Shown here in pieces: positions 47,965 through 51,051 of a stretch of DNA of 64,000 bases (positions are counted from its first letter, which is position 1; the number at the start of each line of letters is the position of its first letter). Location: the NCBI GenBank assembly GCA_965221165.1, contig CBDCRP010000003.1, forward strand, positions 640,001-704,000, read 5' to 3'. The stretch comes from a bacterium. Lineage in GTDB: Bacteria > UBA8248. The position numbers and the translations under genes were made by a program. The notes beneath the pieces were generated by a model. It was not told where the DNA came from and searched no databases. It saw only the letters and a list, made by a program, of their open reading frames with translations.

Positions 47965-49656
47965 ATGGCGGAGCAGAAGACAATGTTGAACCGATTTAGC
48001 CGGCGTATCACCCAGCCGCCTTCCCAGGCCGCTTCTCAGGCAATGCTCTATGGTGCGGGGCTGGATGAAATAGACATGAAAAATCCCCAGGTCGGCATCG
48101 CCAGCATGTGGTGGGAAGGAAATTCCTGCAATTTTCACCTCAATCGGCTCGCTGAATACATCAAACAAAGCGTGAATGCCGATAAAAAAATGGTCGGTCT
48201 TATTTTCAACACGATCGGGGTGAGTGATGGCATATCCATGGGCACGGAGGGCATGAAATACTCCTTGCAATCCCGAGACCTCATCGCCGATTCGATTGAA
48301 ACCGTCGTTGGCGCGCAATGGTACGACGCCCTGGTCACGCTTCCTGGATGCGACAAGAATATGCCCGGCTCCATCATCGCTATGGCGCGACTCGATCGGC
48401 CCAGCCTGATGGTCTATGGCGGCACCATCAGCCCCGGGTTCCTCAATGGGGACAAGCTGGATGTGGTTTCCGCCTTCCAGGCGTATGGAGAATATTTCTC
48501 CGATAAAATTGACGAAGAGCGCTTTCAGTCGGTTATCCGGCATGCCTGCCCGAGCGGCGGTGCTTGCGGGGGCATGTACACGGCGAACACGATGTCTTCA
48601 TCCATCGAAACGCTGGGCATGAGCCTGCCATACAGCGCATCGAATCCCGCTATGAGCGAGGACAAGAAAAACGAGTGTCTCGATGTGGGAAAAGCCATTT
48701 ATCATTTGCTCGAGAACGACATCAAGCCCAGTGACATCATAACAAGAGAAGCATTCGAGAATGCGATTACCATCATCATGGCGCTCGGTGGCTCCACCAA
48801 CGCCGTCATGCACTACATCGCCATCGCCAAGGCCGTCGGGGTCGAACTCACCATTGACGATTTTCAGGAAATCAGCGACAGAACACCTTACATCGCGGAT
48901 TTGAAACCCAGCGGAAAATTCGTCATGGAAGACTTGCACGATGTGGGTGGCGTGCCGGGCGTTCAAAAAATTTTACTGAAAGAAGGCCTGCTCCACGGTG
49001 ATTGCCTTACCGTCACGGGCAAGACGCTTGGCGAGAATATCGAAGCCTTACCCGATCTCCATGCAGGTCAAAAAATCATCGTGCCGCTTTCATCCCCCAT
49101 CAAGAAAACAGGACACCTCCAAATCCTCTACGGCAATCTCGCGAGCGAGGGCGCCGTCGCCAAGATCACGGGAAAAGAAGGGGAGCGTTTCGAGGGTCCC
49201 GCGCGTTGTTTCGACTCCGAAGAGGATGCCCTCAAAGGATTGGAAGAAAAGAAAATTCAAAAAGGGGATGTCGTCATTATTCGTTATGAAGGCCCCAAGG
49301 GCGGCCCCGGTATGCGGGAGATGCTCACGGTTACATCCGCTATCATGGGGGCCGGCCTCGGGAACGACCTGGCCCTCATCACGGACGGCAGATTCTCGGG
49401 CGGCACCCATGGTTTTGTTGTGGGGCACGTCACGCCCGAAGCACAAACCGGCGGCCTCCTCGCTCTCATTGAAGACGATGACACCGTTTTGATTGACGCC
49501 CAAAACCGCATCATGGAACTCAAGGTGCCCGAGGACGAGATAGAAAGGCGGCAAAAGAATTGGAGCGCGCCCCCGCTTAAATTCACCAAGGGTACGCTCT
49601 ACAAATATGCCAAATGCGTATCTTCCGCATCCGAGGGGTGCGTGACGGACGAATAA
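47965..49656 (+). CDS. ilvD: dihydroxy-acid dehydratase
   Basis: [39 protein letters not shown]. Confidence 0.97.
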
Positions 49657-49660
49657 CGAT

Positions 49661-49708
49661 TCATCATGAAAAAGGGGGAGCAAACAACTCCCCCCTTTTT
49701 CATGATGA
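49661..49708. terminator. bidirectional intrinsic terminator
   Basis: TCATCATGAAAAAGGGGGAG / CTCCCCCCTTTTTCATGATGA near-perfect inverted repeat between convergent genes. Confidence 0.85.
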
Positions 49709-49728
49709 CAATGCAAATCTAGAATATA

Positions 49729-50184
49729 TTATTTCTTTTTTCTTTGGTTGGCAAATTCTTCAAAATATCCCCCGATGGAGGAAGCCGCCCAGTCAAAACC
49801 AATCTCCTGGGCTTTTAGCAGCACTTCGTCTCCGCTCAGGTCTTCTTCTTCGGCCAAATGAACAAGCGAGCAAATCCCGGCTCGCCCCACACCTTTTCAG
49901 TGGACGAATACGGGGCCATCTTTTCTGGCCTCATGGAGCGCTTCATGGATTTCTTCCGATAACGCATCGTCCATATTCGAGGCGCTTACGGGAATATGGA
50001 CGAAATTCATCCCTAACTCTTCCGCCGCTTTTCTCTCCGCCTCGGGTGGTAGCTCAGGCTCTTCCTCATCGGCAAAACGCAAATTCACCAGGGTTTTTAT
50101 CCCCTTGTTCACCAGGGATGCCATATCCTTCCGACCCGGCTGGCTCCCGAACGCCAGGTTTTCAGTCAACTCAAAATAGTTCAT
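49729..50184 (-). CDS. DUF442/Blh-like PTP-fold (sulfurtransferase/phosphatase) protein, probable selenoprotein (HUKGVGR)
   Basis: G.QP, G.KT.VNLR...E, G....HIPV, GPVFVH then TGA at 49897-49899; frame continues 55 aa to TAA at 49729; SECIS-like hairpin. Confidence 0.82.
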
Positions 50185-50208
50185 GCCGTTTTTCCTTGTG
50201 TGATGGCC

Positions 50209-51051
50209 TTATCCCCGCTGCACCAGTTCCCGGCACCGAAGCAAGCAGGTTACTATTTCATTCTCCCCATCGCGCTTGTAAATTCCAAGCAAATTATTGA
50301 GCATTCTCTCCACGATACGCCGAGGAGGGGTTTCCTGTAAAAATCGCATGTCGAAATGATATCCCAGCCCCCTCACAATTGCAGCGCAATCGCCCACGCT
50401 CAAACGTTTCCCCCTATCGAAGGGGTCCAAAAATACAGGTTCCGCATCACCTTGGTATTTGACGATAAAATGCCCCGGCATCCCGACTCCGTGAAACGGA
50501 AGTCCCAATCGCCTGGCGAGAATCAAATACAAGGCGGAAAGTGATATGGGAATGCCCCGCCTGCGCTCCAACACACGATTCATAAAACTGTTCTGCGCAT
50601 CATAGTAATTATCCCGAGCGCCATCGAACTGAAGATCTCCGTGTAGATATTCCACGACTTCGGCGACAATCGCGTCGGCTGCACTCATACCCTCCAGGCG
50701 TTCACGCAAATGATTTTCCATTCTCAACAATTCGTCTTTTTTGATCTCCATGTCTTCGAGGGGGTGGCCGAAGGACGCCAACAAGAAACACGCATCTTCC
50801 AAATCCACATCTCTTATCGAAGAAAGAGACCAATCCGAAAAAGCGATTTCGATTTGCCCGTAATGGAAATCCCTAAGCGATGGCGGCAACATCACCCCCT
50901 TCGCTTGACGCTTTTTCAACATCCACAAGAGTCTCTTCTGTTCCTCAGTCGAGAATCCGGAAACCTGGCGGTCCAAAGCCGTCGTCACATTTGCCGAACC
51001 ATCACCCAGCAAATGACAAACGGCCTCTAGTTGAGAGTCGCTTAATGACAA
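50209..51051 (-). CDS. SirB1 / transglutaminase-like protein
   Basis: F.G....Y....NS....VL.RR.G.PISL, GV.MPGHF, DPF..G, RML.NL. Confidence 0.9.
   Translation of the reverse strand: MSLSDSQLEAVCHLLGDGSANVTTALDRQVSGFSTEEQKRLLWMLKKRQAKGVMLPPSLRDFHYGQIEIAFSDWSLSSIRDVDLEDACFLLASFGHPLEDMEIKKDELLRMENHLRERLEGMSAADAIVAEVVEYLHGDLQFDGARDNYYDAQNSFMNRVLERRRGIPISLSALYLILARRLGLPFHGVGMPGHFIVKYQGDAEPVFLDPFDRGKRLSVGDCAAIVRGLGYHFDMRFLQETPPRRIVERMLNNLLGIYKRDGENEIVTCLLRCRELVQRG

Follow-up and report, generated by a model that had tools for sequence, protein, structure and literature searches.

A gene on the minus strand of a 64,000-nucleotide stretch of bacterial DNA (positions 640,001 to 704,000 of contig CBDCRP010000003.1, assembly GCA_965221165.1, GTDB lineage Bacteria; UBA8248; hereafter, the window) very probably encodes a real selenoprotein with selenocysteine (Sec) at codon 96, as judged by comparison of related sequences. 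The window protein is a stand-alone 151-residue member of the DUF442/BLH_phosphatase family with a predicted protein-tyrosine-phosphatase fold, and it is a Sec variant of that family, whose fold is not listed among selenoproteins in the literature searched. In the mechanism proposed here, SelB and tRNA-Sec would decode the UGA at codon 96 as Sec under the direction of a selenocysteine insertion sequence (SECIS) hairpin 10 nucleotides (nt) downstream. Sec96 would then act as the nucleophile of an H-U-x4-R anion-binding loop, at the position where relatives use Cys, and the enzyme might carry or transfer sulfane sulfur via an Se-S intermediate, in the manner of Blh, whose Cys-based DUF442 domain acts in this way on thiosulfate and glutathione. 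The function as a sulfur carrier or transferase, which is drawn by analogy with Blh, is put forward tentatively.

A single in-frame TGA codon interrupts a conserved reading frame

The minus-strand frame runs from an ATG at 50184-50182 to a TAA at 49731-49729 and comprises 151 sense codons, with the TGA at codon 96 being the sole in-frame TGA. The sequence around this codon reads GPVFVH-TGA-KGVGRAGICSLVHLA...RKKK. A first-pass annotation, made from the sequence of the window, had described a frame continuing to RKKK for 55 residues after the TGA and a total length of 151 residues, and both figures were reproduced. Genetic code table 11 breaks the frame into a 95-codon open reading frame, which ends in GPVFVH, and a 53-codon open reading frame. 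Selenoprotein genes are routinely misannotated in this way, with UGA being taken as a stop. The public annotation, from gene callers and from NCBI, holds a 95-residue protein for this gene, and the NCBI label for this stump is 'sulfur transferase domain-containing protein'. The TGA site was also checked in contigs from four runs in three studies, some of which were ~10% divergent and the best match of which may be the source sample. Among the differences listed in these contigs, with a further 29 being unlisted, none fell at 49897-49899 or within 49865-49886, and a TGC or TGT variant at the Sec codon, which the first-pass annotation had named as contrary evidence, was not among them. Runs of RNA were absent from the listed matches to the gene.

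Matches were obtained in 34 of 61 related genomes, and the 58 match rows comprised 52 with one TGA, one with two, one with a TAA and four with none. Forty loci were fetched, consisting of the 20 best rows and 20 of the remaining 33 TGA rows. TGA was present at codon 96 in 40/40 of these loci, with the protein sequence from this position onward being U-x-x-x-G-R-A-G-[IVL]-C-S-L. A scan for the motif GRAG[IV]CSLxH covered 185,579 species, each represented by one genome, and detected 45 loci, every one of which had TGA at the site. Since this motif is located past the Sec site, the scan did not select for TGA; many genomes were common to the 40-locus and 45-locus sets, and hence the two counts are not independent. 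In a phylum-wide comparison of 51 genomes, exactly one TGA was found in 56 of 60 rows. Differences per codon position among the 40 genes were 0.34/0.33/0.51 for codons 108 to 148 and 0.31/0.25/0.53 for codons 1 to 95, a pattern showing that the part after the TGA retains coding-type evolution. TGA is also used as an ordinary stop, as three orthologues and the OsmC-like gene described below end in this codon.

The orthologue with two TGA codons (G009:C5; locus L112, 292-750) had the second one in place of the otherwise invariant Trp132 codon. A second Sec was considered and rejected on account of this position, and the change is likely to be a nonsense mutation or an assembly error. In G008, a decayed window-type copy (G008:C10; locus L119, 292-720) had an internal TAA and a TGG (Trp) at the Sec codon, and the paralogue alone was intact. 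A match without TGA in G025 (G025:C14; locus L118, 193-738) was rejected as an orthologue, being a different Cys form with a signal peptide: it encodes a 181-residue protein of the DUF442 type, which contains the sequence H-C-Q-S-A-N-R and whose N-terminus resembles a signal peptide. No Sec form was found in the genus of G025, which belongs to the same family and of which one genome was searched.

The TGA codon falls at the position of the family nucleophile

A search of 1.84 billion representative proteins yielded 1712 relatives at an E value of <=0.001. The alignment was built from 39 of the 47 best-ranked matches below the two top truncated ones, with eight (P0035, P0041, P0046, P0054, P0057, P0067, P0069 and P0072) being excluded for truncation, fusion or a deviating length. 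These 39 full-length relatives had Cys in 35 cases, Ser in 3 and Asp in 1 at the position aligned with the TGA. His95 was invariant, and Arg101 was present in at least 90% of the rows. Since the column carries Cys in the H-C-x4-R loop of the relatives, the TGA falls exactly at the nucleophile of the family. The first-pass annotation had proposed that Sec is the nucleophile and that the alignment of relatives would extend beyond the UGA and show Cys or TGA in this column. The alignment, together with the TGA in all Sec loci, bore out the second proposal, and the comparison supports UGA recoding and a predicted Sec in the loop.

The Cys-based stand-alone relatives (P0030 to P0076, ~150 residues) resemble the window protein in length, architecture, His95 and Arg101 but differ in having Cys, Ser or Asp at the site and in lacking a conserved Cys105, save for P0030. 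Within the Sec clade, Cys105 is invariant. This residue is possibly a resolving Cys, to judge from its distribution among the sequences, or is possibly fixed solely by RNA constraint, because its codon sits within the SECIS hairpin. One cluster of Cys relatives was labelled by JGI as 'uncharacterized protein (TIGR01244 family)'. Two 94-residue sequences were also observed. P0010, from a public metagenome, consists of residues 1 to ~56 of a window-type protein followed directly by residues ~114 onward; it is without the entire active-site region and is therefore a deletion or an assembly artefact. P0096, from the representative library, is more distant (45% identity) and also ends exactly in ...GPVFVH, and it could represent a Sec form from beyond the present clade that was cut short in gene calling.

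The genome encodes the machinery for Sec insertion

The first-pass annotation had flagged selA, selB, selC and selD for checking. All four were present in the genome with scores over the cut-offs, at 564 bits for selA, 384 bits for selB, 330 bits for selD and 75.9 bits for tRNA-Sec. selA was also detected in 29 of 30 related genomes carrying the TGA form, the exception being G017, which is 79% complete. The selD gene (G000:C2:975065-976027, locus L011) itself encodes a selenoprotein, with one in-frame TGA in AGG-U-GSK. The hairpin loop of selD lies 17 nt past the UGA, which is the same spacing as in the window gene, and that of the OsmC-like gene lies at 20 nt.

A conserved SECIS-type hairpin follows the TGA codon

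The hairpin has a stem of 7 bp (GGCGAGC/GCUCGCU) that starts 10 nt past the UGA and a loop of 8 nt that starts after 17 nt. The first-pass annotation had described an 8-bp stem starting at 17 nt; the hairpin itself stood, but the conserved stem is shorter by one pair and starts earlier, and the 17-nt distance is that of the loop. The proposed eighth pair (G-U) was dropped, as its two bases do not pair in 37 of the 45 distinct sequences from relatives. A model of bacterial SECIS elements is given in a 2026 review of prokaryotic selenoproteomes and specifies a loop of 3 to 9 nt, a stem of 4 to 16 bp, a G at position 1 or 2 of the loop, a UGA-to-loop distance of 16 to 37 nt and an energy of <= -7.5 kcal/mol (PMC13188914). 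The window hairpin falls within each of these limits, with an 8-nt loop (CGGG..., with G at position 2), 7 bp, 17 nt and -10.6 kcal/mol, and the earlier assignment of a bacterial SECIS-type hairpin 3' of the UGA was upheld by this comparison.

The stem GGCG(A/G)GC / GCUCGCU was paired in 45/45 distinct sequences, and the changes within it were limited to A-U to G-U at one pair (20 versus 25 sequences) and one G-U to A-U. Codons 100 to 106 read GGG CG(A/G) GCC GGG ATT TGC TCG in 40 distinct genes. Apart from one ATA and an alternation of CGA with CGG, by which the pair is preserved, these codons had no synonymous variation. The remaining conserved codons with 4- or 6-fold degeneracy all varied among the 40 genes, with entropies of 0.64 to 2.37 bits.

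The read-through protein belongs to the DUF442 family and has a predicted phosphatase fold

The read-through protein (P0001) matched PF04273 (BLH_phosphatase, formerly DUF442) with a score of 41.4 bits (cut-off, 26.1), and this family was matched by 40/40 aligned members. Matches were also detected to the related phosphatase-fold families PF22741, PF22784 and PF22785. The scores for the Pfam families DSPc and Y_phosphatase fell under the cut-offs, and no match to the rhodanese domain (PF00581) was found in the Pfam search of P0001. Both TIGR01244 and the sulfur-transferase part of the Blh model (NF040641) aligned from residue 5 to residue ~135, uninterrupted across the TGA. The Blh score was 66.6 bits against a cut-off of 625, and the match covered profile positions 3 to 130 of 423 only, which places the window protein outside the bifunctional Blh proteins.

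An AlphaFold model, generated with the alignment of 39 relatives, had a predicted local distance difference test score of 93.3 and a predicted template-modelling score of 0.89. In this model, a strand at residues 92 to 96 leads into a predicted helix at residues 100 to 113, which is the usual arrangement of the P-loop in the phosphatase fold. Foldseek placed 2F46 (NMA1982) at the first rank, with template-modelling (TM) scores of 0.78/0.82, followed by TpbA, the DUF442 structure 3GXH and other phosphatases; the TM scores against TpbA, Tk-PTP and other tyrosine and dual-specificity phosphatases were 0.75 to 0.80. A profile search of solved structures detected 2F46 at 4.8e-18 and 3GXG at 1.9e-15. 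The DUF442/protein-tyrosine-phosphatase fold that had been proposed from the sequence was thus retained, on the PF04273 score above the cut-off and on 2F46 as the top structural match of the model.

The DUF442 structures 2F46 (NMA1982 of Neisseria meningitidis) and 3GXG/3GXH (Shewanella) have the fold and the H-[C/U]-x4-R loop in common with the window protein. Compared with 2F46, 3GXG and the Blh domain, the window protein has a predicted Sec in place of Cys, stands alone at ~150 residues and has extra C-terminal helices; unlike Blh, it is without a fused or neighbouring ETHE1-type dioxygenase. The loop of classical phosphatases is C-x5-R, one residue longer than x4, and the x4 loop of the window protein sets it apart from the classical tyrosine and dual-specificity phosphatases.

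A paralogue, the distribution and the history of the Sec form

A paralogue is present in the source genome outside the window (G000:C3:1702789-1703232; locus L045, 4001-4447); its codon 96 is likewise TGA, and it shares the core of the hairpin with the window gene. The window type is characterized by U-K-G-[VLM]-G-R and the paralogue by U-K-A-T-G-R, with ~43 to 45% identity between them. Two copies were detected in almost all genomes of the genus of the window, and the TGA form was detected in all 22 genomes of this genus. More broadly, the TGA form was present in 34 of 41 genomes of one family-level group and in the source genome, and in 0 of 9 genomes of three other families of the phylum. 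The Sec form is restricted to a single Nitrospinota-type lineage of family rank. Public relatives are metagenome-assembled genomes (MAGs) labelled Nitrospinota, Nitrospinaceae, Candidatus Tectomicrobia or merely 'bacterium'.

A tree of 79 proteins placed the 40 Sec forms together with the Cys form P0030 in a single clade at the end of a long branch (support, 100/99), within which P0030 was nested with support of 96/77. As the tree was midpoint-rooted, we infer rather than observe the direction of the Sec/Cys change; given a root outside the Sec clade, the topology suggests a single gain of Sec and a single later return to Cys in P0030. A metagenome scan for the DNA of the nested Cys form P0030 detected only two distant loci.

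Gene neighbourhood

The features of the window gene and its surroundings are listed in Table 1. The SirB1-like gene was directly upstream, and ilvD adjoined, in 27/27 loci of the window type and other-genus forms. Because it is kept beside the Sec gene in all 27 loci and in several genera, the SirB1-like gene is a possible functional partner, and the two genes are probably co-transcribed. The hairpin between the Sec gene and ilvD is a probable two-way terminator. The first-pass annotation had called it bidirectional; the hairpin with a T-run was confirmed, but the terminator tool flagged it on the plus strand only, and the mirror-image run on the minus strand was seen by eye in the sequence.

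Table 1. Positions in the window of the predicted selenoprotein gene, its elements and adjoining features
Feature	Position	Strand	Details
Whole gene of the predicted selenoprotein	49729..50184	-	151 codons plus TAA; DUF442/BLH_phosphatase-family protein with predicted Sec at codon 96
In-frame TGA, predicted to be read as selenocysteine (U96)	49897..49899	-	Stands where the H-C-x4-R loop has its catalytic Cys
Active-site loop, codons 95-101 (H-U-K-G-V-G-R)	49882..49902	-	Alignment of relatives; strand 92-96 then helix 100-113 in the model
SECIS-type hairpin	49865..49886	-	5' arm 49880-49886; loop CGGGAUUU 49872-49879; 3' arm 49865-49871
Cys105 codon (TGC)	49870..49872	-	In hairpin loop/3' arm; TGC in 40/40 Sec forms
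Putative ribosome-binding site, AAGGAA	50192..50197	-	GGA core ends 8 nt ahead of the ATG; from sequence only
Transglutaminase-like gene (Transglut_core2, SirB1-like)	50209..51051	-	PF13369, 2.4e-44; 24 nt upstream of the Sec gene
Dihydroxy-acid dehydratase gene, ilvD	47965..49656	+	Convergent, conserved neighbour
G+C-rich hairpin, A- and T-runs at flanks	49674..49694		Between the Sec gene and convergent ilvD

The paralogue is located downstream of an OsmC-like selenoprotein gene in 19 of 20 loci. In the source genome, the OsmC-like gene (locus L045, 3418-3978) ends 22 nt before the paralogue, has U84 in GF-U-LLT and scored 164 bits against the OsmC_like_Se model (NF041052; cut-off, 95). This known selenoprotein has its own UGA and hairpin and shares an operon with the paralogue, but it differs from the window protein in its fold and in its UxxT motif; it is included in the 2026 catalogue and is therefore not new. 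Farther upstream of the paralogue are two metallo-beta-lactamase-fold genes and one glyoxalase-fold gene. A persulfide dioxygenase beside the paralogue was considered and rejected, as the metallo-beta-lactamase-fold neighbours resemble diiron flavodiiron-type domains.

Alternative explanations for the UGA codon and for the function

If the UGA were an ordinary stop, the product would have 95 residues, and the downstream frame would be untranslated or would form a separate 53-codon gene. The 95-residue calls of the gene callers and NCBI agree with such an arrangement, as does the presence of a possible start (GTG, TTG or ATG) at codon 99 of the window type in 19 of 20 loci, with L035 having GTA. 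At this codon, however, the paralogue and the other-genus forms have Thr, Ser, Gly, Leu or Glu, none of which provides a start; the downstream frame is kept with coding periodicity in all 40 genes, the family profiles align through the TGA, and the shortened product would lose the catalytic residue and half of the fold. We consider termination at this codon to be extremely improbable. Hardly more credible is that a standard tRNA, for Trp, Cys or another amino acid, reads the UGA independently of the Sec system or that the gene is a pseudogene or an assembly error. MAG assemblies can contain errors, and the degraded copy in G008 has a TGG at this codon, but the TGA was at the site in 45/45 species genomes, and no variant was among the differences listed in contigs from three studies. 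Against this explanation also stand the use of TGA as a normal stop in the three orthologues and the OsmC-like gene and the combination of a hairpin at the canonical SECIS distance with a complete Sec machinery.

Several results weigh against the interpretation of the window gene as encoding a Sec-dependent sulfur transferase. The score of 55.1 bits for TIGR01244 (NCBIfam) was below the curated cut-off of 85.85, and hence the window protein is an outlying subfamily; all 11 Sec forms tested matched TIGR01244 at an E value of <=0.001, and the one score tabulated, that of the window protein, was below the cut-off. Covariation analysis of the 45 distinct sequences detected a compensatory double change at 0 of 7 pairs, so that the case for the RNA structure depends on the suppression of synonymous change, in codons that also encode conserved residues. 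When a 71-nt segment was compared with shuffled sequences, z was 0.08 and 98 of 200 shuffles folded equally well; folding energy by itself therefore lends no support. An Rfam scan of 49600-50300 returned 16 weak matches, all under the gathering scores and none to a SECIS family. With respect to function, no persulfide dioxygenase or other sulfur-oxidation gene was found among the neighbours. The hairpin stands beyond chance by its conservation, not by its folding energy.

The first-pass annotation had named a sulfurtransferase or a phosphatase as the likely enzyme. Sulfur transfer is favoured because the x4 loop is shorter than the C-x5-R loop of phosphatases and because the sole assayed DUF442 domain transfers sulfur. 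This domain, that of Blh, moves sulfane sulfur, with measured thiosulfate:cyanide and thiosulfate:glutathione transferase activity (PMC5823870). A possible, though rather unlikely, alternative is that the same selenoprotein would form a Sec96-Cys105 selenenylsulfide and function as a redox relay or reductase, in which case the paralogue would serve the upstream OsmC-like selenoperoxidase. The invariance of Cys105 in 40/40 Sec forms and its retention in the nested Cys form P0030 but not in distant Cys relatives are consistent with this alternative, as are the position of the paralogue behind the OsmC_like_Se gene in 19/20 loci and the mostly redox roles of known selenoproteins (PMC13188914). 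P0030 is a single sequence, however, RNA could on its own fix a codon inside the SECIS loop and 3' arm, and the window copy does not adjoin the OsmC-like gene.

A role of the same selenoprotein as a phosphatase or an arsenate reductase, with Sec as nucleophile, appears quite improbable. The fold matches TpbA and Tk-PTP, the Pfam phosphatase families match weakly, and Sec-containing arsenate reductases of other folds are in the catalogue (PMC13188914). On the other side, the C/U-x4-R loop is one residue short, no acid residue occurs at the usual place of the general acid among the invariant columns, and the sole assayed DUF442 domain, that of Blh, is a sulfur transferase (PMC5823870). The most far-reaching combination would make the window protein the first natural Sec P-loop enzyme of the phosphatase fold and the founder of a new family, with a Sec96/Cys105 selenenylsulfide acting as a redox or sulfur relay and with the paralogue and the OsmC-like selenoperoxidase forming a pair within an operon of two selenoproteins; we regard it as unlikely that this combination holds as a whole.

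Relation to known selenoproteins and implications

The 2026 review lists 119 selenoprotein families and subfamilies with their domain identifiers (PMC13188914). PF04273, TIGR01244, DUF442 and any phosphatase fold were absent from Table 1 of this catalogue, in agreement with the earlier suggestion that the fold lies outside the known selenoprotein families. No DUF442 or tyrosine-phosphatase selenoprotein was found in the searchable full-text literature, a scope outside which subscription journals lie. Within this literature, TIGR01244 gave unrelated papers only, among those listed, and selenoprotein in combination with Nitrospina gave BSepDB only, a database whose searches are aimed at already known selenoprotein families. 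The sole phosphatase mentioned in the Global Ocean Sampling selenoprotein paper is a PP2C fusion, two further selenoprotein reviews did not mention a DUF442 or phosphatase-type selenoprotein, and no selenoprotein model of NCBIfam release 20 matched the window protein. The nearest functional analogues are the rhodanese-like selenoproteins (PF00581 forms 1 to 5; PMC13188914), which have Sec in place of the persulfide-forming Cys in a short anion-binding loop but whose fold is unrelated to that of the window protein.

The public records for this gene hold a 95-residue stump without the catalytic residue. The full gene would add a phosphatase-like DUF442 fold to the enzymes known to use selenocysteine and would provide enzymologists with a natural Sec/Cys pair in a P-loop for comparison. 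One Nitrospinota-type lineage would have invented, duplicated and kept this Sec form, once beside another selenoprotein, and the finding bears on the spread of selenium use in marine and host-associated bacteria.
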